IMG/VR virus record: IMGVR_UViG_3300020045_020105
Location: 29,247-93,246 of that record
From: a virus
Strand: one strand, 5' to 3'
DNA: 64,000 nt
Each line of letters starts with the position of its first letter. Position 1 is the stretch's first letter. The notes under the pieces were generated by a model. The model worked only from the letters and a program-made list of their open reading frames with translations. It was not told the origin of the DNA and did no database searches. This document shows positions 2,268-29,267 of this stretch, piece by piece. The position numbers and the translations under genes were made by a program.

Positions 2268-3074
2268 ATGAATTTAGAAGACTTGTTATTTCCAGTAAAA
2301 ATCGTCCCATCAGTTACCTTCCTTGAGGGATATGACTTTGTAAATAAACATGAAGGTATGGTGATTGTTGAACCTGTAGGAGAAAAACCTAAAGTAGTAA
2401 ATGTACCTTCATTGGGCTATGGATTGCTTCCATTAGCAGATATTTTAATCCCACTTGAGGAAAAACTTCGTGAGTCATTCACCATCACTCCAACTTATTC
2501 ACACAGAGATCATGCTAGATTTAGTATTACTTATGTGATTGAAGGAGTAGAAGTTTTGGTTGGTAAAAAGGATAAGTTAAATCCCTTCATCAAAATCATT
2601 CACTCTTACGACTCCTCAACCATCTTTCAGGTTAAACTTGGCTTTTCAAGACAATTAACCAAGACAGGTATCATGGGAGCTACATTCCAAGACGTAATTA
2701 CATCCCATACTGTTGATATGATTGACGAAGTTATCGAAGATACAATCAATGCAGTGACTGAATTTATTGAGAACTGTGAAGATTACAAAGTTGAAGCTTA
2801 CGATTTAATCAATAAAAAGGTAACTAATGTTGAGACTCGTGTTGATCAAATTCTTGAAGAAACCGGTGAAATGCGTGGTTATAAAGACCTAATCATGCAA
2901 AGAATCGCTTTTGAAATAGCGGAAAATAAATTACCGCAAACCGATTGGCTCATTTATAATGCCATCAATTACCAATTGAATTTCAGCTCGGAAGCGCAGG
3001 AAAATATGAAAATGAAGAAAGATCAAAAGATCTACTCTTACATTGCTTCGAGCTATGCCGCGAAAATCGCCTGA
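2268..3074 (+). CDS. DUF932-family protein
   Basis: VSxxYGLLP-type and IIHSYDSS..FQVKLGFSRQL..TG motifs typical of DUF932/DUF945. Confidence 0.7.
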   Translation: MNLEDLLFPVKIVPSVTFLEGYDFVNKHEGMVIVEPVGEKPKVVNVPSLGYGLLPLADILIPLEEKLRESFTITPTYSHRDHARFSITYVIEGVEVLVGKKDKLNPFIKIIHSYDSSTIFQVKLGFSRQLTKTGIMGATFQDVITSHTVDMIDEVIEDTINAVTEFIENCEDYKVEAYDLINKKVTNVETRVDQILEETGEMRGYKDLIMQRIAFEIAENKLPQTDWLIYNAINYQLNFSSEAQENMKMKKDQKIYSYIASSYAAKIA

Positions 3075-3082
3075 TTATTAAC

Positions 3083-3126
3083 TGGTGGGGGAGGATAAGC
3101 GAACGAACGCACCCCTCCCCCTTCCA
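3083..3126 (+). other. GC-rich stem-loop in the SSB leader
   Basis: GGGGGAGG (3087-3094) pairs with CCTCCCCC (3114-3121); inner GCG/CGC; outer TGG/CCA; no U-tract. Confidence 0.6.
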
Positions 3127-3248
3127 TTAAAAACTGAGAAGATGCACTCCATTAGATCCCCAGGTTTATCGATCCCATAGAAAATCGAATTTGTGTTTAG
3201 TATTAATTATAAATTAGTCTGGTGAGAATCCAGATACAAAAATCATTT

Positions 3249-4328
3249 ATGGCAATAGATAGAAAATTATTTAAAGCAACCTCTACAGAGGTATTGAAGG
3301 AACAAAAAGACAGAGTTGAGTCTCAAGTTCACGGCTCTAACAGGGCTAAATTCCACAAAATTGAAAAGGGTGCAAATAAATTCAGGTTTTACCCTGCTCA
3401 CCCAGGTACATCGAATTTCATTTATGAAAAAGTGATCGCTTGGCTTCCTCAGGAAATTCCTGCTAAGGACGGTGCCGAAGCAAAAATCGAAAGACGTCCT
3501 ATTTTTAACTCTCGCACTCATGGTGGTACCAAGAAGGATATCGTCGAAGAGTATATTAAATTTGTAGTTCGTCAATTGACGGAAGAAATTCAGGACGAAA
3601 AAGAACTATCCAAAAGACTTGATCCAATCTTAAATTGGAAAACAGGTATTAAAGCTGGTGTGTCCTGGGTTGCTTATGCAGATAAAATCAATTCTCTGGG
3701 AGAAGCATTCTTTGGAATGGTAAATGTAACCGATGGAACTAAAAACAAGCTGAACGAATTGGCTATTGTTGAAGATCCAAATGAACCAATTTCTGTGGAT
3801 CCCTTCACCAATCCGGATACTGGTAAAGCTGTGGTTATTACATATACTCCAGATGCAAAAGCAAAAGGAGATGTGTATAAAGTAACTTTGCTCTGGCAGA
3901 AAAATTCCCCTCTATCTGAGTCTCAACTTGAGGCTTTCTCAGAAGTAGAAACCCTTCAATCTATGTTCCGTAATTCATACACCAGAAAAGATTTCGAGAG
4001 AGCTCTTGATGGTTTGCAGATTATTGATGCCGAACATGGGTATGATGCTTTTCAAAACGATAATTGGTTAGAAATCGTTGAGGAAATTGACAGGTACTAT
4101 CCTGAAGAAGGTGAAACTGCTGCCGAAGAAGTTGCAGAAGAAATTGCCGAAGAAGCTACTGAATCTATTGAGGAGGTGGAAGCTGAAGAGGTGGAAGAAG
4201 TAAAAGAAGAAAAACCAGTTTTCAAAACTCCAGCTGCAACAGCAGCAAAAGAAACTGCTCCTCCAACTTCAACCTCTGCAAGAGCTACCGGTACAAGTTC
4301 TTTGAGAGACAAATACAAGAAGAAATAA
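3249..4328 (+). CDS. T4 gp32-like single-stranded DNA-binding protein
   Basis: FHKIEKGANKFRFYPA and DPFTNPDTGKAVVITY motifs, acidic C-terminal region, position ahead of recombination genes; ATG 3249 preferred over GTG 3222. Confidence 0.75.
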   Translation: MAIDRKLFKATSTEVLKEQKDRVESQVHGSNRAKFHKIEKGANKFRFYPAHPGTSNFIYEKVIAWLPQEIPAKDGAEAKIERRPIFNSRTHGGTKKDIVEEYIKFVVRQLTEEIQDEKELSKRLDPILNWKTGIKAGVSWVAYADKINSLGEAFFGMVNVTDGTKNKLNELAIVEDPNEPISVDPFTNPDTGKAVVITYTPDAKAKGDVYKVTLLWQKNSPLSESQLEAFSEVETLQSMFRNSYTRKDFERALDGLQIIDAEHGYDAFQNDNWLEIVEEIDRYYPEEGETAAEEVAEEIAEEATESIEEVEAEEVEEVKEEKPVFKTPAATAAKETAPPTSTSARATGTSSLRDKYKKK

Positions 4329-4354
4329 GCAAGTAAGTTTAAAAATTTCAACAC

Positions 4355-4382
4355 AAATATCCCCCTTTATTGGGGGATATTT
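4355..4382 (+). terminator. intrinsic terminator-like hairpin
   Basis: AAATATCCCCC-TTTATT-GGGGGATATTT. Confidence 0.7.
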
Positions 4383-4393
4383 AAATATTTTCC

Positions 4394-5419
4394 ATGAATA
4401 AACCACTATTCGCCCAAATTACAGATACTCATTTAAGAGTAGGAAATCAAGATTTTATTGAGAAATTATTTGATGAATTTCTAGAAGCTTGTATAAAAGC
4501 AGGAATAAAGACAGTTTATCACTTAGGTGATTTTTTTGATACAAGAAAGGAACAACCTGAAGAAGTACTTGTTACGGCAGGACGAATCTTTAGCAAATTT
4601 GATAGGTGCAATATTAATTTAATTATAATTCCAGGGAATCATGATAAAGTGAATCCCCTAGGAACTTCAAGCTATTTATTGGAATTCCAATTCCACCCAA
4701 ATGTGACAGTAATTTCAACCCCAACATATTTTCAAGAAGACCTTTATGGTATTATCTTACTCCCCTATTTTGAAGACAGCAGAAACGAAATATTTTTAGA
4801 ACAAAATAAGCATTTAGCTCAAACATCAACAAATCCAGTTTATGTAGGTGCTCATTGTGAAGTAGAGGGAATTATCCCTGAGGGAAAAACAATTCGATTC
4901 CCCCTTCCCATAAAATTACTTAAAAACTTCACTAAAGTATTTGTAGGACATTATCACAATTTATCTAAAATTGGAACAAATATTTTTTATATAGGTAGCT
5001 CTCACCAAGATTACTTTTCTGAGGATGAAGAAAAGGGCTATACTGTTGTCTACCAAAGTGGTGCTCATAAACAATACTCTCTCACATTCCCAATCTGGAA
5101 AGAGGAGATTATCAATCTGTCAGAGGGTACTTTTACTGAGGACTACGTAGTAGATAAATATGGTGCTGAAATGTATCACAATGCTACTAGAGTAAGACTT
5201 CACTTTAAAGGTGATCGCTCTTTAATGTCAGTAGTTAATATTCAAAGACTCAAATCACTTGGGTTTAAAATTAAAACTACAATTGAAGGGGAAGGAATTA
5301 TTATTTCAGAAACACCAAAAGAAGAAACGATAAAGTTTGATTTACAAAACTCACTCAAAGAATTTTGTGAGATAAATCAACTTGAATTCGATATACTTGA
5401 ACCTTATTTAAACGATTAA
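4394..5419 (+). CDS. Mre11/SbcD-like recombination nuclease (gp47-like)
   Basis: metallophosphoesterase motifs DTH, GDFFD, GNHD, GHYH, YIGS. Confidence 0.9.
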   Translation: MNKPLFAQITDTHLRVGNQDFIEKLFDEFLEACIKAGIKTVYHLGDFFDTRKEQPEEVLVTAGRIFSKFDRCNINLIIIPGNHDKVNPLGTSSYLLEFQFHPNVTVISTPTYFQEDLYGIILLPYFEDSRNEIFLEQNKHLAQTSTNPVYVGAHCEVEGIIPEGKTIRFPLPIKLLKNFTKVFVGHYHNLSKIGTNIFYIGSSHQDYFSEDEEKGYTVVYQSGAHKQYSLTFPIWKEEIINLSEGTFTEDYVVDKYGAEMYHNATRVRLHFKGDRSLMSVVNIQRLKSLGFKIKTTIEGEGIIISETPKEETIKFDLQNSLKEFCEINQLEFDILEPYLND

Positions 5420-5420
5420 T

Positions 5421-5558
5421 ATGAAACCAGAAGAAAAAATATTTATTGCAAATTGTCCTTTAACTGCTTGTGCAATTAATGAAAAGGGAGTTTGTTGTAG
5501 TACAAATGAAGTTCAGTGTGAAAATATCCCTGATTGTTTTAATGAAGACAAAGAGTAA
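5421..5558 (+). CDS. small Cys-rich protein (45 aa, not in ORF track)
   Basis: MKPEEKIFIANCPLTACAINEKGVCCSTNEVQCENIPDCFNEDKE. Confidence 0.6.
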   Translation: MKPEEKIFIANCPLTACAINEKGVCCSTNEVQCENIPDCFNEDKE

Positions 5559-6041: not shown

Positions 6042-6140
6042 GGGGGTGTGGTGAAGTTGAGACACACAGGGCTGCAGCTATATTTAGAATGTTAGATATA
6101 TGAACCTGAGAAACTAGTTTGACTCTAGTAACCCCCACAA
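6042..6140 (+). tRNA. tRNA-like element or pseudo-tRNA with a 25-nt hairpin insert in the anticodon loop (GCA/Cys if the insert lies at 37/38)
   Basis: acceptor GGGGGTG/AACCCCC, D arm GTG..CAC, anticodon stem CAGG/CCTG, T arm ACTAG-TTTGACT-CTAGT, ends A-CAA. Confidence 0.6.
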
Positions 6141-6160: not shown

Positions 6161-7525
6161 ATGGAATATTCTGACAAATTAAAAGGAGTACTTAAACAGA
6201 TCAATAAGAGCTACGGAAATAATTCTGTAGTTAGTTTAAATGATGTAGGTATAGTACCTCCACTCTGTTCAACAGGTAGTTTAGGATTGGATTTAGCAAT
6301 AGGAATTGGTGGAATGCCAAAGGGGAGAATTATTGAAATATTTGGGCCTGAATCTTCGGGTAAAACAACTTTATGTTTACATTGTATTGCAGAAGCACAA
6401 AAAACAACAAGTAAACCGGCAGCTTTTGTTGATGCAGAACACGCATTTGACCCAACTTATTTTGAGGCTATTGGAGGAGATTTAGATGCTCTTATTTTCT
6501 CTCAACCAGATAATGGTGAACACGCTTTAAATATTGTTGAATCTCTTGTAAATTCTGGGGAAGTATCAATAATTATTGTGGATAGTGTTGCTGCTTTGGT
6601 TCCTAAAGCAGAACTTGATGGAGAAATGGGAGATCATTCCGTTGGAGTTCATGCTCGTTTAATGTCAAGAGCAATGAGAAAACTTACAGCAGTATGTTCA
6701 AAAACAGAAACTACAATTATTTTTATAAATCAACTTCGTGAGAAAATTGGGATAATGTATGGTTCACCAGAAACCACTACAGGAGGAAATGCATTAAAAT
6801 TCTATGCTTCTGTACGTTTGGATATTCGTCGTAAATCAGTAAATAAACACACAGAAAACGGAGAAGAGATCAAGGATTCGAATGCTACTCTTGTAAAAGT
6901 AATTAAAAACAAAGTAGCTCCACCATTCAAGGAATGCAAATTCGATATTGTTTACGGTAAAGGTATAGATTCAGTTTCAGAATATGCTTATGTCGCTGAT
7001 AAACTTGGTTTATTTAAAACAAAAGCCGGTAAAATTCACCCAAATTACACCCCAACCATTTGGGGAGATGAAGAAATTGAATCTACAATAAACTTTGTTT
7101 CTGATGTAATCAAAGATCCTGAATTTTGGGTGTTAAAAGAAGAAATTTACCTTCATATTCAACTTAAAATGAACCAAATTACTCAAGAAAAATTCAATGA
7201 TGAATTTAATATTCTTGAGTTCAAGTTTGAGCAAGAAGAAGAGCATTTTAAGAAGTTCAAAGCTTTTGGTGATGATGCTTCTGGTAAATCAAAATATGCA
7301 GAAGCTATTTATTACCTTGGACTTGCTGCAGAAGTAAAACCATTTGATAAACCAACCAAAACCAAGTTGATTGCTGTTCAAAAACGCACAGAAGGCAAGA
7401 AGGATATCGATTGGTGGGTAATGGTGTGGAATGACGATACAAAAAGACTAAATGTTCAAACAGGAGATATAGAAGAAATTAAAACTGAACCTGTACAATC
7501 AGATGTGGAAACTAAAACAAATTAA
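6161..7525 (+). CDS. recA: RecA recombinase with C-terminal extension
   Basis: GPESSGKTT Walker [44 protein letters not shown]. Confidence 0.97.
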
Positions 7526-9476
7526 AGCAAAAAATCTTGGTTCGTTCAAGGATGTTGAGATATCACTGGTTGAAGGGGTTTGCACCTTAATTACCGGAGA
7601 AAATCTTGATGATGAAGGACAGGAAAGCAATGGCTCGGGGAAATCATTAATCCTCGAGACCATTTCTTTAGTTACTACAGGCGAAGTATTCCGGAAGGAT
7701 GCTCGCCCTGTAGATCTAATTAGAGACGGGGAGGATGAATCTCCTCTATCTCTATTGTTTGTAGATACTCTGAATGAAGAAAAAACACTTTATATCGAGA
7801 GAACTATTTACAGAACTAAAACAGCAATTGTTAAGATAAAAGAAAGCCATAAACAAGGAAACACTACTAAAAGTGGTATTTCTGAGTATAATGAAGAAAT
7901 TTTACACTTAATAGGATTATCTAAACAAGATCTTCTTAGTTACTTTATTATTCATAAGGAAAAAACAACCCCTTTCCTTATGTGTACTGATACAAAGAAA
8001 AAGGAAGTTATTGTTCGCTTTGCCAACTTAGGTATTTTAGAAGGAATTAATGCAAAAGTAGATAAGGAAATAGCTACTTTGGTAACATCAATTTCCTCCA
8101 TAGATACTCAAGTTGTTTCTGAGGAGAGTTCTCTTGCTACTTATGAAGTTGAAAAGAAGAACCATCTCAAAAATAGGGAATCTCTTTACCAAGAACAGAA
8201 GAATCAGATTCAAGCAGAAATAAATGATCTAATTAAGGATAAAGAACAACTTCAATCAGATAAGGAACTTGAACTTATTTTGGATAAAAAGAGAAAGCAA
8301 AAGCTCTTTATATACCAAATGAGATATTCTAAATTTGTGGATCTCTATACTCCTCTTCTTGACGAATGTAAAGAGGACCATGCTTTTACTAAGAAGCAAA
8401 TTAAGGACCTAGAAGACGAAAATAGTAAAGAAGTAAAATTCTTTTCACTTGAAAAACAAGAAGAATCAAAATTAAAAATTAAAATTGCCGGTGAAATTGC
8501 TTGTCCAAAATGCGATCATAAATTTATTTTAGGAGATAAAAATAATACTCTCGAAGAATATAAGATTCAATTGATTAACCTTCAAATAGCTATTAAAGCT
8601 ACAGAAGGTAGAATTTTAACTATCGCAAATGACTTAACAGAATGCAAGGAAGTACTTGAAGAAATTGAACTCATTATTAATGGAGCTAAAAAGGATCTTG
8701 ATCGTTACAATACTTTACTCTTTAAATGTGATTGGACTATTACCAATTTAACAGGTGATATTGAGAGTCTTAAAAATACACTTGAGAGATATGATCGAGA
8801 TATAAAGAAAGTATCTGATAAAATTACTACTCTGAAAACTAAAAAATTAGAAGTAGATAAGGGATTAGATAGCGTATTAATTCGATACGATAAACAAATC
8901 GAATCGATCAAAACCAAAATACTTACAATCAAACAAAGCAAAGAAGACCTTCAATCATCTATTGTAAATAAAGAAGATATTAAAACTGCTTTTAGTAAGT
9001 TTAAGGTCTATTTGGTAAATAAAACACTAAATACTATTTCATCCTTTACCAACCACTATCTCAATAAAATGGGATCGGGAATGTCTATCAACTTAAATGG
9101 CTATCGCTATTTGGCTGATGGTAAAACATTACGAGAGGAAATAGAAACAGAGATATTTAGAGATGGGATGCCTTGTGGACTATTTGGCAGATTTAGTTCT
9201 GGTGAAAAGGTCCGATTAATAGTAGCCAATATCCTAGCACTGCAGAAAATCATCAATATAACATCTCCAACAGGAGGACTTGATTTATTATTTCTAGATG
9301 AGATCGTAGAGAGTGTAGATTCGCAGGGAATCAAGGGATTGGTTAAAGCGATTAATCTCACTCAACAAACAGTTGAAATTATTACATTTTCTCAACACAA
9401 TATCTTAGGAGTTCCTAATTTAATTGTGCGTAAAAAGGACGGTGAAGCAATACCTTACTACAAAGAAAATTCTTAA
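7503..9476 (+). CDS. Rad50/SbcC-like ATPase (gp46-like)
   Basis: SNGSGKS Walker A, coiled coils with CPKC zinc hook, FSSGE signature, LFLDE Walker B. Confidence 0.93.
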
Positions 9477-9519: not shown

Positions 9520-10074
9520 ATGGAAAAGAAAATAATATTAGCCATTGACCCTGGAAATATTGAATCAGCATATGTACTCTGGGATGGAGAAAAAATGCTA
9601 GATAAAAATTACCTACCAAATAAGGAATGTTTATCTAAGTTTGAGCAACAAAGATTTCAAAATATTGATTGTGTTGTGATTGAAATGGTATCCTCCTATG
9701 GTATGCCTATTGGTCAGAATACAATAGATACTTGTGTATGGATTGGTATTTTCAAACAATTTTTCCATAATAAAGAGGTCCATTTAAGATTTCGCCAAAC
9801 AGTAAAAATGCACCACTGTCATGCTCTGAATGGAGTTAATGATGGAGCAATAAATAATGTTTTAAAAGGTAAATATGGAGATGATAAGACTCAAAAAAGA
9901 CCAAATGAGGTTATCTGGAATGATTGTGTAAAACACAATGGCGGTAGAGAGTACATGAATGGAGATATTTGGGCAGCTTTTGCTCTTGCAACTTCATGGA
10001 CAGAACCACCAAGCTCTATTATTCAAAATCCATTAGAACGTGAAAACAATAAATTAACCAAAAACTTACTATAA
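9520..10074 (+). CDS. RuvC-like Holliday junction resolvase
   Basis: ILAIDPG, VVIE and DIWAAFALA acidic catalytic pattern. Confidence 0.75.
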   Translation: MEKKIILAIDPGNIESAYVLWDGEKMLDKNYLPNKECLSKFEQQRFQNIDCVVIEMVSSYGMPIGQNTIDTCVWIGIFKQFFHNKEVHLRFRQTVKMHHCHALNGVNDGAINNVLKGKYGDDKTQKRPNEVIWNDCVKHNGGREYMNGDIWAAFALATSWTEPPSSIIQNPLERENNKLTKNLL

Positions 10075-10690: not shown

Positions 10691-10976
10691 CAGATACTCA
10701 AAAGTTAATTTTATATGTCCAAAATGCCATGTAAAATACCCTGTTTATGTGTGGAGCGACAGAAAAGAAAACCCACTCTGCCCAGAATGTACTACAATCT
10801 ATAAAACTCCAGTACAATTAGAGGAAATTGTTGAGGATAAACCAGAAGTAAATTATCCATCAATTGGTGGTTTCTCCAACTTATCTCTACAAGATAAACA
10901 AAAATCTCTTAAAGCAAGAGCTACGGCTCACTATAAAAAAGAAATTTTACCAGAAATTAAAGACGACAAACTATGA
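10680..10976 (+). CDS. zinc-ribbon (FmdB-like) protein
   Basis: CPKC...CPEC. Confidence 0.6.
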   Translation: MANSRYSKVNFICPKCHVKYPVYVWSDRKENPLCPECTTIYKTPVQLEEIVEDKPEVNYPSIGGFSNLSLQDKQKSLKARATAHYKKEILPEIKDDKL

Positions 10977-11311
10977 TTATTTTATTAATTCTATTAATCC
11001 TTATTACTATGAATGAATTCTGGAACAATATTGCATACTTAACATCTCTAGGATATTTGATCTTCCAAATTGAAGGAGAGTATTTTGTTACAAATCAAGG
11101 CGGTGGAAAATACTCCATTACAAATGAAAGTACTAAAGTTAGAGGGGCAAATATTACTAATCTTTTACTTGAAAATAAAGGACACTGGTTAGAAGGGATT
11201 GGAGATAGTGCAAAAGTAATTCAAGCTATAAATCGAATTCCTATTCGAGATATTAAGTTTAACGGCATTTGGAGATCTATAGAATACTTACCTTACTCAA
11301 TGAGTTCTTGA
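10973..11311 (+). CDS. hypothetical protein
   Basis: ORF track; start may be the internal MNEFW. Confidence 0.6.
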   Translation: MIILLILLILITMNEFWNNIAYLTSLGYLIFQIEGEYFVTNQGGGKYSITNESTKVRGANITNLLLENKGHWLEGIGDSAKVIQAINRIPIRDIKFNGIWRSIEYLPYSMSS

Positions 11312-11364
11312 TTAAATCATAATCATTTATTTTAAATTAACGGAAGAACTCTAATATATAAATA

Positions 11365-11967
11365 ATGAAAGTAGAACCAATTTTAGAAAAATATCAAATT
11401 TGTACAAAATGTGGGGAGAGTAAGCCCCTATCATTAGAATTTTATAATAGTAATAGTAGTTGTGTTGATGGTTTTACTAGACAATGTAAAATTTGTCTAA
11501 ATGAACAACAAATGCTTCGCTACAGAAGACAAAACCCAGATTACTATCTCCATATTGAGGAAAGAGAAAAACTTTCCCTTGAAGGAAAACAAAGGTGTAC
11601 AGGTTGTCTAAAAATCAAGGATTTTAGTGAATTTAACCCAGATATCAAGGCAACAAAGAAAATTGCAACGAGGTGTTTTAAATGTCAAATAAATACCAAA
11701 TACCTCCAATTATATGGAATAACGAGATTAGAATTTATTAAGGTTGTTGAAGAACAAAATTTTATTTGTCCAATTTGTAAGAAAGAAATTAAAATTGGCG
11801 CTTATCAAGAAAAAGGAGATAGATTTGCTGTTTTAGATCATTGCCATAAAACTAAACAAAATAGAGGGGCTTTGTGCAATAAATGTAATGCAGGATTGGG
11901 ATTTTTTGATGATAATTTAGAGATACTTAAATCAGCAACTAATTATCTTAAGAAATGGATAAAATAG
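11365..11967 (+). CDS. endonuclease VII-family (His-Me) nuclease, possibly a homing endonuclease
   Basis: CPIC...DHCH...RGALCNKCNAGLG.FDDN...L..A.NYL, preceded by two CxxC...CxxC zinc-finger units. Confidence 0.85.
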   Translation: MKVEPILEKYQICTKCGESKPLSLEFYNSNSSCVDGFTRQCKICLNEQQMLRYRRQNPDYYLHIEEREKLSLEGKQRCTGCLKIKDFSEFNPDIKATKKIATRCFKCQINTKYLQLYGITRLEFIKVVEEQNFICPICKKEIKIGAYQEKGDRFAVLDHCHKTKQNRGALCNKCNAGLGFFDDNLEILKSATNYLKKWIK

Positions 11968-12443
11968 ATAACTTAAAAAATTCAAAAATAGTTATTTTTA
12001 CTGATGGCTCTTGTAATAGAAAAATAAAATTGGGCGGAATTGGAATTATTCTCTTATATAAAAATGAAAAAATTACTATTTCTAAAGGATTCTCTAATAC
12101 AACTAGTCCAAGAATGGAATTAATTGCTGTAATTGAAGCTCTATCCAATGTAAATATTACTCATCTTCCAATTGAAATTTTTTGTGATAATCAATATAGT
12201 TGTTATATTTGGCAAAAACAATGGTATAGATCCTGGGAAGAACAAGATTTTCTAGGAACAGCAAATAAGGACTTAATTGTGAGGTACTTAGAACAATTTA
12301 GAAGATTTACTAATATAAAAATAAATTGGATAAGAGGACATGGGAGAAATAATGAAGAAGATATTAATATTCTCAACGAAGAAGCAGATCAATTAGCTAA
12401 TTATAAACAATTTACAATGTATCTCGAAGATACAAGAACTTAA
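11955..12443 (+). CDS. rnhA: ribonuclease HI
   Basis: FTDGSC, TTSPRMELIAVIEAL, DNQY, NKDL, WIRGH, NEEADQLA. Confidence 0.92.
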   Translation: MDKIDNLKNSKIVIFTDGSCNRKIKLGGIGIILLYKNEKITISKGFSNTTSPRMELIAVIEALSNVNITHLPIEIFCDNQYSCYIWQKQWYRSWEEQDFLGTANKDLIVRYLEQFRRFTNIKINWIRGHGRNNEEDINILNEEADQLANYKQFTMYLEDTRT

Positions 12444-12453
12444 TAAGAAACAA

Positions 12454-13512
12454 ATGTATATAAATCAAAATAATTATATCTATACAAATAAGGGAATACT
12501 TCAACTAAAAAATGCGCCTGAACAAGGTTTCCTATTAAATAGAGATAAGCAATTTATCCCCTACACTAAACTCTCAAGAGTTGAAGAGAAATCAATAAGC
12601 ATTATCTCCAACATAGACAATGTAAACCTACACCCAACCAATTTTTTATATTTCTTCAATCAAACTCCAGAAACCGAGAAAACTGCTTTAAAAGATGCAA
12701 AAGTACTCGATTATCTATTATCTCCAGTATTTGAATTTGATCCTTTAAGTGCCGATAAGAAACTACCAATTATTTCACACAAATTTGAAAACACGTTTCT
12801 TTATTTACAAGGTGCTTTATTTATGCAGGGATTAATATCAATTAAAGATGATCAGATTTATATTCAACGATCTGAATTAAGAGCTAAAACCATAACTACA
12901 TTAATTCAATTCCTATTAAATACAAAATTGGCTGATTCTAAGATTGAAACTAAAAAGAACTATAAATCTAAAAATTGTTTCGTACTAAAGTTAACCAGAT
13001 TAGGAGTTGAAGTTGTTGTGGATTATTTTATGCAACTTAATCCAAAAATATTTAACCTCAACCTAGAAAAACGCAGACTATTTTTATCTGGAGTACTCGA
13101 TATAATGAATTATCACGAAAGTAAATCTGTAATTTCATTAAGAACTAGAGCAGATCATATTGCAGCAGAATATAAACAAATTCAAATATTATTCAATTCA
13201 ATTGGTGTTAAATTTTATCATGTTCCAAACTTAGAAGGACTTGATTTTAGACTTAAAGAAACACATTTACGTAAATTTAAACATCACTTTATTACTACAA
13301 TTAAATCCTACAACAACTACAACCTATTCAAAGATAAAGCGTTCTTTGAGTTTTATTATACAATGGATGAAAGAATAGTAGATGCTTATGGTTATGATTT
13401 TCACAATTACCTTCCAATCTATTTAAATTCAATTAAAGAAGGTCCAGTTGATGTATTTCATGAGCTTGATATTACTGAACCTATACTAACAAATAACATC
13501 ATACTTAGTTAA
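12454..13512 (+). CDS. free-standing degenerate intein-like (Hint + LAGLIDADG) protein
   Basis: IYTNKGILQLKN (block A-like), YLQGALFMQG and RRLFLSGVLD (LAGLIDADG-like), IQILFNSIGV (block H-like), FHELDITEPILTNNIILS (blocks F/G-like); Cys1 and terminal His-Asn absent. Confidence 0.6.
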   Translation: MYINQNNYIYTNKGILQLKNAPEQGFLLNRDKQFIPYTKLSRVEEKSISIISNIDNVNLHPTNFLYFFNQTPETEKTALKDAKVLDYLLSPVFEFDPLSADKKLPIISHKFENTFLYLQGALFMQGLISIKDDQIYIQRSELRAKTITTLIQFLLNTKLADSKIETKKNYKSKNCFVLKLTRLGVEVVVDYFMQLNPKIFNLNLEKRRLFLSGVLDIMNYHESKSVISLRTRADHIAAEYKQIQILFNSIGVKFYHVPNLEGLDFRLKETHLRKFKHHFITTIKSYNNYNLFKDKAFFEFYYTMDERIVDAYGYDFHNYLPIYLNSIKEGPVDVFHELDITEPILTNNIILS

Positions 13513-13520
13513 AGAAAATT

Positions 13521-13585
13521 TTAACATTCTTTAACATCTTTTAACAAATTTTAACATCTTTTAACAAAAATCCTTCGTACCTTTG
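13521..13585 (+). promoter_or_regulatory. class I promoter: five TTAAC repeats plus TACCTTTG
   Basis: TTAAC at 13521, 13531, 13541, 13551, 13561; -7 box at 13578-13585. Confidence 0.85.
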
Positions 13586-13646
13586 GGAATTAAGATTAAG
13601 TTCTATGATCGAGTCAATTAATAACAACCAAGTAAATAAGATAGTT

Positions 13647-15374
13647 ATGGCAACAATTACACCAAGTGAAAAACAAGTAGCGATTTATAATTTTATCGCC
13701 CAGGGCACAGGAAATGCAGTTATTTCCGCAGTAGCGGGAAGCGGCAAGACCTATACCATTGTATCTTCAATCAAGTATTTGCCAATTAATCATTCAGCTT
13801 TATTTTTAGCTTTCAACAAAGCAATAGTTGAAGAGCTTAAGAGCAGAATACCTTCAAGTGTAACAACTCAGACCTGCCATAGTTTAGGTTGGAATGCAAT
13901 TATTCGCAAATTTGGCCGAGTTAAATTGGATAATTGGAAAACATGGAATGCAATGAAGGCAGTTTCTAAGGCCCAGAATTGGGGTGAAGAGTGCCTTGAG
14001 TACACATATATGAAGAGAGTAGAGCAATTGGTTGGCTTAATCAAAGTTAATTTAGCTGAAACATTTGCAGAAGTATCTGAATTGGCAGAAAAACACGAAG
14101 TTGAAATCTTAAATGGCGAAATTGAAAAAGCACTTGCCATTCTTGAAGTGTGTAATAAAGATACTCGCAATTTTGACTATGCAGATATGCTTTACATTCC
14201 AATTAAAATGAATATCACATTAATTAAATATGATTTCGTTTATATTGATGAGTGCCAGGATTTAAACAAAGCTCAACAACAATTAATGCTTCGTTCTTTA
14301 TCACCAAGAGGCAGATTTATTGCTGTAGGTGATCCTCAACAAGCAATTTATGGTTTTGCCGGTGCTGATGTAAATTCATTCAACAATTTACTTTCAATTC
14401 CAAATACAACTACTTTCCCACTTTCAGTGAATTATCGTTGTGGAAGACAAATTATTAACTTGGCAAAGAAAATAGTACCTCAATTAGAGCATTTTGAAGG
14501 AACAGGCGAAGGATTAGTAGATAGAGATGCTTCTTACAAAACCATTAAAGATGGAGATATGGTACTTTGTAGAAATACAGCTCCACTTGTTAAAATGTGT
14601 CTTCAATTCCTTGCTCAACAACAGAAAGCTTATGTAAAGGGTGGTGATATAGGTATAAATTTAATTAACCTGATCAAGAAACAAAAACAACGTTCTTTGA
14701 GTATGTTAATTAAAGTATCATTACCTAATGAACTTTTAGAAGTAAAATCAAAACTTGCTCAAAAATACCCATATTTACTAGACGAAGACAGAGAAGAATT
14801 ACCTGCTTATCGTATCTTAGTAGATAAAATTCAAGTACTTGAAGCAATCGTTGATAATTGTGACGATATTCTTACTGTGGATAATTTGATCTCTAAAATT
14901 GAGTTCATTTTCTCAGATGGTAAAGCAGGGATTTGTTTCTCAACTATTCACAAAGCAAAGGGCTTAGAAAGTGAAAACGTTCACATTATTGAAGAGTTTT
15001 TAATGCCAAGTAAATATGCTAAGAAAGATTGGCAGAAAGTACAGGAATCTAATTTAGAATATGTTGCTTACACAAGAGCAAAGAAAACATTAAACTTTAT
15101 TAGTGACTGGAGCTTCAAACACACAAGCTTTCTTGATCTTGGGCTGGATTTCAAACGTGAGAGCAGAGTAGCAAAACTTGAGTTCACTTTTATTACAGTA
15201 TCTTCAAGAGATAAATTCTCAATTTCAAAAGGAGATATTGTACGTTTAAAAGGTGGAGAACAAGGAATGATTTCAAGAAATGCTTCTTTAAAGGATATGG
15301 AACTTGTTTATGAAGGTAAAGTAATTAAATTTACAAAAGAAGATATTACAGGTGTAGTTTCAAACGATATTTAA
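13647..15374 (+). CDS. UvrD/Rep superfamily I helicase
   Basis: AVAGSGKT, LAFNK, IDECQD, VGDPQQAIYGFAGA, NYRC, STIHKAKGLE, YVAYTRAK; ATG 13647 follows the conserved start motif. Confidence 0.93.
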   Translation: MATITPSEKQVAIYNFIAQGTGNAVISAVAGSGKTYTIVSSIKYLPINHSALFLAFNKAIVEELKSRIPSSVTTQTCHSLGWNAIIRKFGRVKLDNWKTWNAMKAVSKAQNWGEECLEYTYMKRVEQLVGLIKVNLAETFAEVSELAEKHEVEILNGEIEKALAILEVCNKDTRNFDYADMLYIPIKMNITLIKYDFVYIDECQDLNKAQQQLMLRSLSPRGRFIAVGDPQQAIYGFAGADVNSFNNLLSIPNTTTFPLSVNYRCGRQIINLAKKIVPQLEHFEGTGEGLVDRDASYKTIKDGDMVLCRNTAPLVKMCLQFLAQQQKAYVKGGDIGINLINLIKKQKQRSLSMLIKVSLPNELLEVKSKLAQKYPYLLDEDREELPAYRILVDKIQVLEAIVDNCDDILTVDNLISKIEFIFSDGKAGICFSTIHKAKGLESENVHIIEEFLMPSKYAKKDWQKVQESNLEYVAYTRAKKTLNFISDWSFKHTSFLDLGLDFKRESRVAKLEFTFITVSSRDKFSISKGDIVRLKGGEQGMISRNASLKDMELVYEGKVIKFTKEDITGVVSNDI

Positions 15375-15385
15375 AAAAGATAGTT

Positions 15386-15778
15386 ATGAAAAAACAAATT
15401 AAATTATTAAAATCAAAGTTCTTCAATTGGTTGTTTAAAGATCAAATTTTGGAATTAAAAAAGTTAACAGAAGATACTGCTTTTAGAATAGCTAAATATG
15501 CTGATAATGCAGAAATATCTAAAAATGAGTGTTATAAACAAGAAAAAGTCCTTAGGAATACTGTAGGTAGCATTCAGGTAGCGACAGATATTCACTTAAG
15601 ATCTCCTAGTTGGGCTGTGATTTGTATTCAAGGGAAGAAGGCGGACTTTGTTAAATTTATTGATTTAGATCAAAGATCAATAAATGATATTGCCCAGTAT
15701 CTTCGCAGATTTGAAAGACAAAATGTAGTAGCAGATATGCCTTATTGTGTACCTAAAGATCAATTTTTTAGAATATAA
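15386..15778 (+). CDS. hypothetical protein
   Basis: ORF track. Confidence 0.65.
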   Translation: MKKQIKLLKSKFFNWLFKDQILELKKLTEDTAFRIAKYADNAEISKNECYKQEKVLRNTVGSIQVATDIHLRSPSWAVICIQGKKADFVKFIDLDQRSINDIAQYLRRFERQNVVADMPYCVPKDQFFRI

Positions 15779-15790
15779 ATTTAAACCGTC

Positions 15791-16237
15791 ATGATTGCAG
15801 AAGAAAAACCTATCTTACAATTAAAAGGTACCTTCAATGATGAAGGTATCATCTGGGAAGAGATAAAAGAGTGGAAATCTATTGTTGAAATCAAAGATGC
15901 CCTCTTACTCCCTCACTCTCTAATTAATCAAGCCCTTAAAAAGGGTTATAAAGGAGCAGGATTTTGGTGGATTTATAAGGATAAATACGAAAAAGGAGAA
16001 AGACCGGCAGAAGGTATCCAAGTAAGAAACCAAATTATCTATGCCTATACTCTTGAAGATACTTGCTTAGGTAAATTTGAAAATGCTATTTTAGCAGGTC
16101 GTCATCTTGGGGTATCTGTCTCAAATGTAAGGAAATGTGCAAAAGGAGAAATTCCTAAATTAAGGGAGTTTAAATTTACTCATATTCCAAAACGCAAAGA
16201 AGAATCACAATTGAAATTTACAAAAGTTCTTATTTAA
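15791..16237 (+). CDS. NUMOD1 (IENR1) tandem DNA-binding protein without a nuclease domain
   Basis: IKEWKSIVEI...GAGFWW.Y and LGKFENAILAGRHLGVSVSNVRKCAKG. Confidence 0.7.
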   Translation: MIAEEKPILQLKGTFNDEGIIWEEIKEWKSIVEIKDALLLPHSLINQALKKGYKGAGFWWIYKDKYEKGERPAEGIQVRNQIIYAYTLEDTCLGKFENAILAGRHLGVSVSNVRKCAKGEIPKLREFKFTHIPKRKEESQLKFTKVLI

Positions 16238-19522: not shown

Positions 19523-19525
19523 ACT

Positions 19526-19600
19526 TTAACATCCTTTAACATCTTTTAACATCTTTTAACAAATTTTAACATCTTTTAACAAAAATCCTTCGTACCTTCG
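19526..19600 (+). promoter_or_regulatory. class I promoter: six TTAAC repeats plus TACCTTCG
   Basis: TTAAC every 10 bp from 19526 to 19576; -7-like box at 19593-19600. Confidence 0.85.
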
Positions 19601-28715: not shown

Positions 28716-29216
28716 ATGAAAACACTACTATTTTTATTTACATTATTATCAATTAACTGTTTCTCTCAAGGTTTAATGGGACTTTCTGAAAAAGAGTATA
28801 AAGAAATATTTCGTTTAAACTTAGATTCAACTGTAATTACATTTGATAATAATAAATTCACAAAATTATTTGATGAAGCAGACGAAGCATTCTTAAAAGA
28901 AGCCGAATTAGCATCAATTAAAGCAGCAGAAGAAGCTGATTCTATTTTTGGTATTAAAGAACAACCTTATTTCTATAAGAGTATATGGCTTAGTTGTATT
29001 TCTTCATCTAAAAAACAAAATATATTATTGTCTGAGGATGAAGCACTAAACCTATATTTAGATGGTTATATGGGTGGACAATTATCTTATTATTACAAAA
29101 AAGATTTTAATTATAATCATGCTTTTTCAACTCTAAAGAAGATTAAACGTAACCTTAGAAAAACAAGGTCACGGAATCAAACATTTAAGAAGAAAGAGAA
29201 ATTTAACACTTTTTAA
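28716..29216 (+). CDS. secreted hypothetical protein
   Basis: signal peptide MKTLLFLFTLLSINCFS|Q. Confidence 0.65.
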   Translation: MKTLLFLFTLLSINCFSQGLMGLSEKEYKEIFRLNLDSTVITFDNNKFTKLFDEADEAFLKEAELASIKAAEEADSIFGIKEQPYFYKSIWLSCISSSKKQNILLSEDEALNLYLDGYMGGQLSYYYKKDFNYNHAFSTLKKIKRNLRKTRSRNQTFKKKEKFNTF

Positions 29217-29267
29217 CATCCTTTAACAAATCTTTACATCTTTTAACGGAATTCTTTCGTACATTTG
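29203..29267 (+). promoter_or_regulatory. class I promoter: TTAAC repeats plus TACATTTG
   Basis: TTAAC at 29203, 29213, 29223, (TTTAC 29233), 29243; -7 box at 29260-29267. Confidence 0.8.

Follow-up and report, generated by a model that had tools for sequence, protein, structure and literature searches.

Can an intein persist as a gene of its own once its host protein, its splicing chemistry and its nuclease activity are gone? The question is raised by an open reading frame (ORF) in the 64,000-nt stretch of viral DNA analysed here (the window), which covers bases 29247–93246 of the complete, 93,246-bp phage genome IMGVR_UViG_3300020045_020105 with direct terminal repeats, and which has a GC content of ~32%. 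The ORF in question (12454–13512, + strand; 352 amino acids from an ATG start) very probably encodes an extein-less intein homolog that has lost both splicing and DNA cleavage. That it is a real gene and no chance frame follows from its length. The frame is closed upstream by an in-frame stop 19 codons before the ATG, which leaves 371 amino acids open, with 12454 as the earliest start codon downstream of that stop; at the other end, the TAA at 13510 is backed by another in-frame stop four codons further on. Given a stop probability of 0.082 per codon at the composition of the ORF, 352 codons would stay open by chance with P ~8 × 10−14, and none of 20,000 shuffles remained open across the ORF length.

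The evidence for an intein architecture is structural and predicted. For the exact ORF sequence, the ESM Atlas provides a model with a predicted template modelling score (pTM) of 0.78 and a predicted local distance difference test score (pLDDT) of 0.71. Against the ten nearest structural family sets, 313–342 of the 352 residues aligned at template modelling (TM) scores of 0.68–0.81 (query-normalised), and the alignment extends to residue 352. All ten sets are intein-bearing (PF14890 and/or PF14528), in hosts as unrelated as terminase, RecA, ribonucleotide reductase, MCM, AAA ATPase, XerC and UDP-glucose dehydrogenase; because the intein is the sole element common to the ten, the structural match was taken to be to the intein. 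Residues 1–105 alone aligned to intein-bearing proteins over 97–105 residues with TM scores of 0.73–0.81, which supports a Hint N-lobe beyond the central LAGLIDADG domain. An earlier, sequence-only reading of this stretch had proposed that the ORF derives from a free-standing intein combining a Hint domain with a double LAGLIDADG domain, a derivation that the predicted structure bears out over residues 1–352.

AlphaFold2 (AF2), run without an alignment, reached a pLDDT of 40 on the whole protein and left the Hint lobes unresolved, and in this model residues 109–193 form an alpha-beta-beta-alpha-beta-beta-alpha unit. For residues 105–300 the pLDDT was 61; the second half was mis-modelled as helices, and helical bundles rivalled the LAGLIDADG matches. 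With AF2 single-sequence models, VIA/Foldseek placed LAGLIDADG proteins at or near the top of the ranking in three libraries, which is consistent with the Atlas model, the AF2-based scores being individually non-significant. A Foldseek search with the AF2 whole-protein model gave a meaningless result. The predicted architecture is a Hint fold assembled from N- and C-terminal lobes, as in the Atlas model, and, between these, two LAGLIDADG half-domains, each of the alpha-beta-beta-alpha-beta-beta-alpha type.

On the + strand, the predicted Hint N-lobe spans residues 1–105 (12454–12768), with a block-A-like segment at Y8–N20 and a block-B region at T62-N-F-L65. The first putative LAGLIDADG half-domain (residues ~106–195; 12769–13038) carries its motif, L118 to G126, at 12805–12831, and the second (residues ~196–300; 13039–13353) its motif, L211 to N219, at 13084–13110. 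The predicted Hint C-lobe (residues ~301–352; 13354–13509), which includes the block F/G-like stretch VFHELDITEPILTNNIILS, was assigned from the Atlas alignment together with direct reading.

How much of the catalytic machinery is left in this scaffold? Catalytic positions were placed by AF2 helix ends (helix 109–123, strand 128–131; helix 204–218) and the LAGLIDADG pattern. The first LAGLIDADG motif reads L118-QGALFMQ-G126, with Gln125 in place of the metal-binding Asp/Glu, and the second L211-SGVLDIM-N219, with Met218 in the equivalent place. The N-terminus offers Met1-Tyr2 at the expected position of Cys/Ser1. Two candidates exist for the TxxH of block B, T62-N-F-L65 (His replaced by Leu) and V57-N-L-H60 (Thr replaced by Val); neither is intact, and their alignment is statistically unsupported. 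The C-terminus (...NNIILS-stop) falls 1–2 residues short of the canonical His-Asn and is followed by no +1 nucleophile, and the whole protein has a single Cys (C175). Direct reading of the sequence thus agrees with the earlier claim that Cys/Ser1, the terminal His-Asn and the LAGLIDADG acids have been lost.

The same reading had described an intact frame without any extein, and this, too, holds. Upstream, a complete RNase H gene (11955–12443, + strand; PF00075, E = 5 × 10−24, model positions 2–137 of 141) stops 10 nt before the ORF start; downstream, across a 92-nt spacer, lies a full-length, uninterrupted UvrD-type helicase gene (13605–15374, + strand). With the ORF frame closed on both sides and both neighbours complete, neither of them can serve as an extein. 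Judged by its residues, the predicted product cannot splice, because it has no exteins, no nucleophile at position 1 and no terminal His-Asn; nor can it cut DNA, since Gln125 and Met218 stand where the two acids that bind metal would be.

Stand-alone genes of intein descent are known from yeast, where HO and the WHO elements have no exteins and miss motif G (PMC7282813). The ORF resembles them in that a splicing-domain relic and a LAGLIDADG domain form an independent gene with neither exteins nor splicing, the C-terminal motif G being absent here as well. WHO genes adjoin their target gene, with many copies degenerate (PMC7282813), and the ORF adjoins a member of an intein-targeted helicase family. 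The differences are equally plain. The LAGLIDADG sites of HO and WHO are still active and these proteins cleave DNA, whereas the ORF is without both acids; HO and WHO carry a C-terminal zinc-finger domain with Cys-X-X-Cys repeats, whereas the ORF product has one Cys in 352 residues; duplicated target-gene fragments of the WHO type are missing at the ORF, with only short chance repeats in 11300–15500; and HO and WHO are yeast genes, without detectable sequence relationship to this phage gene. Loss of both catalytic aspartates under a retained Hint and LAGLIDADG architecture has a counterpart in the PhoVMA intein (PMC8966425), which, in contrast to the ORF product, is still embedded in its host protein and splicing; here, splicing residues and exteins are gone too. 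Set against PI-SceI-, PI-PfuI- and TliVMA-type inteins, the ORF has neither Cys1 nor an intact TxxH, lacks the terminal His-Asn, the +1 nucleophile and the catalytic Asp pair, and gives no profile match.

Why, then, would a phage carry such a gene? We tentatively suggest that a full-length dead intein homolog has been retained as a non-cleaving, sequence-specific DNA-binding protein, the DNA binding and the retention both being inferences. The stand-alone gene would encode two Hint lobes around a two-fold LAGLIDADG endonuclease domain from which splicing and cleavage residues have disappeared. What may remain is the capacity to bind a long, specific DNA site via the LAGLIDADG beta-saddle, maybe extended by the Hint lobe as in PI-SceI; LAGLIDADG proteins read long, asymmetric sites of 14–40 bp (PMC8966425). 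The ORF would be co-transcribed as the last gene of a recombination/repair block, and its simplest origin would be a homing element of the intein type that had moved out of a host gene.

Two lines of evidence hint at a kept function, namely codon usage and the distribution of conserved residues. Among the large genes of the phage, hardly any is more native in synonymous codon usage than the ORF (distance 0.0745 vs. a range of 0.074–0.188). A foreign origin, considered on account of the GC skew of the ORF (−0.14), was rejected, as the skew reflects low G at first codon positions, an amino-acid effect, and codon usage is native. Conservation could be assessed against a single relative, P0002, the only one returned by a word-indexed search of 5.8 billion clusters and an exhaustive phmmer search of 1.84 billion representatives. 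This relative, of 194 aa, is encoded on a 1449-nt ENA contig, shows 86% identity to ORF residues 159–352 and ends in the same ...NNIILS. Differences between the two are concentrated outside residues 190–327, with 8 of 138 positions changed within this segment (5.8%) and 20 of 56 elsewhere (~36%; Fisher p = 5 × 10−7); 21 of the 28 changes are conservative, and the best-conserved stretch falls in the second LAGLIDADG half-domain. In addition, the loss of all key residues and the failure of every profile to detect the ORF imply a long divergence, in the course of which a neutral AT-rich frame would have closed.

Several observations weigh against this proposal, beginning with the sequence itself. 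No significant similarity to intein or LAGLIDADG profiles was obtained with any profile tested; the intein profiles PF14890, PF05203 and PF07591 and the Pfam models LAGLIDADG_1, LAGLIDADG_2 and LAGLIDADG_3 all left the ORF unmatched. Two comparison sets were used, one of 108 true inteins taken from UvrD-type helicases (motif II) and other proteins, and one of five PI-SceI-type inteins. The hhalign comparisons of the ORF together with P0002 were not significant (P = 0.61 and 0.27), and hmmsearch with filters off returned 2.9 and 1.0 bits, scores that shuffled sequences equalled in 9 of 477 and 39 of 496 cases. As sequence, the block-like motif resemblance is not above chance. As to the intein block order on which the sequence-only reading had relied, the motifs are present and the local alignments run collinear with the proposed blocks (ORF residues 6–18 with intein residues 5–17; ORF 197–258 with the second LAGLIDADG region), but these alignments are non-significant.

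Rarity and the shape of the relative count on the same side. Among ~15 billion proteins, the gene is known from two lineages only. The initial Met of P0002 aligns with the TTG codon 159 of the ORF (L159), which suggests that its start was called at an internal codon; the upstream frame there may be closed and the N-terminal half disrupted. The uneven conservation between ORF and P0002, finally, could reflect a recombination mosaic rather than selection. Other searches were empty: Pfam and PHROGs gave no match to the ORF at E ≤ 1 and PDB chain sequences none at E ≤ 10, tblastn against 50,697 phage records found nothing, and contig scans of IMG/VR, JGI metagenomes and GTDB genomes revealed no ORF relative. 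PF14890, PF14528 and PF05203 had zero matches across the whole phage genome at E ≤ 10, so that a recent parent intein is not recognisable in the genome.

The strongest competing explanation accepts the same identity and drops the function: the ORF would be an inert relic, a selfish element that has become inactive and is still undisrupted. The loss of all catalytic residues is what the homing-cycle model predicts after fixation (PMC8966425), and the only relative begins at an internal position, as a copy with a broken N-terminal half could. The gene is exceedingly rare, other phages have unrelated genes in its place between RNase H and helicase, and genes resembling homing endonuclease genes (HEGs) cluster nearby, one of them endonuclease VII-like (at 11365) and the other with a NUMOD1 domain (at 15791). 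On the other hand, a neutral 352-codon frame at 28% GC is expected to close fast, as the chance estimate given above illustrates; the fold is still predicted, although the sequence has diverged too far for any profile to detect; its codon usage is fully native; and residues 190–327 are approximately six-fold better conserved than the remainder. We consider a functionless relic somewhat doubtful, and favour retention as a DNA-binding protein over it, with the relic nearly as likely.

A second alternative denies the intein origin altogether. On this view, the ORF would encode a free-standing protein, LAGLIDADG-like or of another kind, whose beta-rich termini are unrelated, and weak motif cues would have been over-fitted by the ESM model. 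Indeed, every sequence method used leaves the Hint domain unsupported, AF2 is confident for residues ~128–190 only, and the Atlas feature scores (0.88–0.94) lie within a range that shuffled proteins sometimes attain. The sequence negatives, however, lose much of their force in controls: two genuine intein families detected each other with hhalign at a Prob of 6–46% only, and a hidden Markov model (HMM) of one intein family barely picked up the second inteins within the same proteins. As true inteins recognise one another so weakly, the negative result for the ORF is weak evidence against homology. Further arguments against a non-intein origin are that the structural alignment spans residues 1–352, that ten of ten independent family sets carry inteins, that the N-lobe matches by itself, and that the ORF coincides with canonical intein ends to within 1–2 residues on both sides. 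A non-intein origin hence appears improbable, and the reading as an extein-less, dead intein homolog is maintained in what follows.

If the ORF product binds DNA, which site might it recognise? The adjacent UvrD-type helicase gene would be a plausible former or current target, since its family is a hot spot for inteins in other phages. The distant faecal phage MT835601.1 (L003) keeps the order RNase H, small ORF, helicase, and its helicase (2992–5541) holds a true intein (PF14890, 8 × 10−16, plus LAGLIDADG_2), inserted at the DE–CQD junction of motif II. Inteins also sit at two further points in helicases of this family, Walker A (GSGK followed by C...THN and then T) and motif III (GDxxQ followed by C...THN and then C/S), so that phage UvrD-type helicases are intein targets at three sites. 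This survey of insertion sites comprised proteins P0003–P0122, retrieved with the MT835601.1 helicase intein. In the window, the helicase is uninterrupted at all three positions, namely Walker A between K48 and T49 (~13746), motif II between E216 and C217 (~14253), and motif III between Q246 and A247 (~14340). A direct link between the ORF and the motif-II helicase intein of L003 was rejected, as BLASTP found no similarity. Stand-alone inteins of the motif-II family were found neither among shorter proteins nor among annotated phages, where all matches of this family lie inside UvsX, DNA polymerase or helicase. Within the surveyed set, P0010, P0011, P0016, P0025 and P0037 each contain two inteins of different families.

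By its helicase, the phage has Bacteroides phages as closest cultured relatives (43% identity), which do not share the neighbourhood. The ORF and its surroundings were absent from Bacteroides phage DAC16, the IMG/VR locus L002 and 13 RecA-anchored loci, and other phages fill the slot between RNase H and helicase with unrelated genes. One specific, and rather unlikely, scenario would be that a domesticated whole intein binds homing sites in the helicase gene and so shields the helicase from inteins, or regulates the adjacent operon. If true, either role would constitute a prokaryotic-virus parallel of the transition from intein to HO.

The spacer between ORF and helicase contains a 10-bp-phased TTTAACA array (13519–13568, + strand), confirming the earlier report of an array directly downstream of the ORF. 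Similar intergenic arrays occur on the + strand at 2190–2225, 19525–19581 and 29202–29248, each made of 3–6 copies of the unit TTTAACAnnT phased at one helical turn; the 16-mer pattern of these arrays has 16 occurrences vs. 4.1 expected by chance. The arrays are probably a phage-wide regulatory or promoter-associated element that marks operon starts. From the position of the ORF, the sequence-only reading had gone on to suggest a domesticated regulator, activating one class of promoters. With the array recurring at four intergenic sites scattered through the window, adjacency to the ORF is not specific, and this suggestion went unsupported. The ORF, moreover, closes the block before the array, which lies downstream of it, and short, phased direct repeats are unlike the sites read by LAGLIDADG saddles.

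A precedent for a transcriptional role would be WhiA, a dead LAGLIDADG scaffold that became a transcription factor and that has a C-terminal helix-turn-helix (HTH) and no Hint lobes. In the ORF, neither HTH nor WhiA Pfam families were detected, and its C-terminus is modelled as a Hint lobe; an HTH domain of the WhiA kind is missing. An activator of the TTTAACA-array promoter class is, for these reasons, very unlikely.

Just as remote is the possibility that the ORF encodes a homing endonuclease, free-standing and active, or a maturase for a group I intron. In favour are the predicted LAGLIDADG fold, a location of the kind often taken by free-standing HEGs (between conserved phage genes) and the ability of dead LAGLIDADG proteins to act as maturases. 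Against it, both metal-binding acids are missing (Gln125, Met218), no duplicated flanking-gene fragments were found, and the genome has no group I intron, with no Rfam match in the window and a best RF00028 score in the genome of 13 bits vs. a 50-bit cut-off. Free-standing phage HEGs (seg, mob and F-type LAGLIDADG) do resemble the ORF in occupying a slot between conserved replication/repair genes near an element-targeted gene family, but they are active nucleases in which a Hint domain is lacking. One weak match resembling a group I intron, outside the window (genome positions 10941–11049; 13.3 bits vs. the 50-bit cut-off), is most likely due to chance.

What would a dead, extein-less intein in a phage mean more generally? 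Inteins are defined by their residence inside host proteins, and the ORF, if correctly interpreted, would show in viruses of bacteria the same escape that HO and WHO represent in yeast. It would also be an amenable example in which to ask for what purpose a dead intein is retained, be it DNA binding, anti-homing immunity or none. A full-text literature search for extein-less or stand-alone inteins found only the HO/WHO work. Novelty is tempered by Atlas clusters of 300–460-aa viral proteins that carry PF14528 with PF14890 or PF05203, a hint that similar, undescribed genes exist. By features, the nearest Atlas clusters are hypothetical ones of 316, 351 and 320 aa, along with clusters of 303–456 aa that bear PF14528/PF14890. 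For annotation, the locus advises caution: the gene is invisible to all sequence profiles and recognised by structure prediction alone, and such genes may be under-counted.

The ORF is the final gene of a tightly packed recombination/repair block, which includes genes for an SbcC-like ATPase (7503–9476), a RuvC-like resolvase (9520–10074), a DUF3310 protein, an endonuclease VII-like protein with N-terminal zinc ribbons (11365–11967, overlapping the RNase H start by 13 nt) and RNase H. Beyond the helicase, 15791–16237 encodes a 148-aa NUMOD1-domain protein without a nuclease domain. With the endonuclease VII-like and NUMOD1 genes on either side, the surroundings of RNase H and helicase look like a landing zone for mobile nuclease genes. 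Neither ARAGORN nor Rfam (at gathering thresholds) reported a tRNA or known RNA family in the window; a tRNA-Cys-like candidate at 6042–6137 was recognised by neither. In distantly related phages, the RecA matches of IMG/VR loci L012–L014 and L016 are split in two, with the parts 0.5–1 kb apart and the break near RecA residue ~200, and these split RecA genes probably carry inteins.
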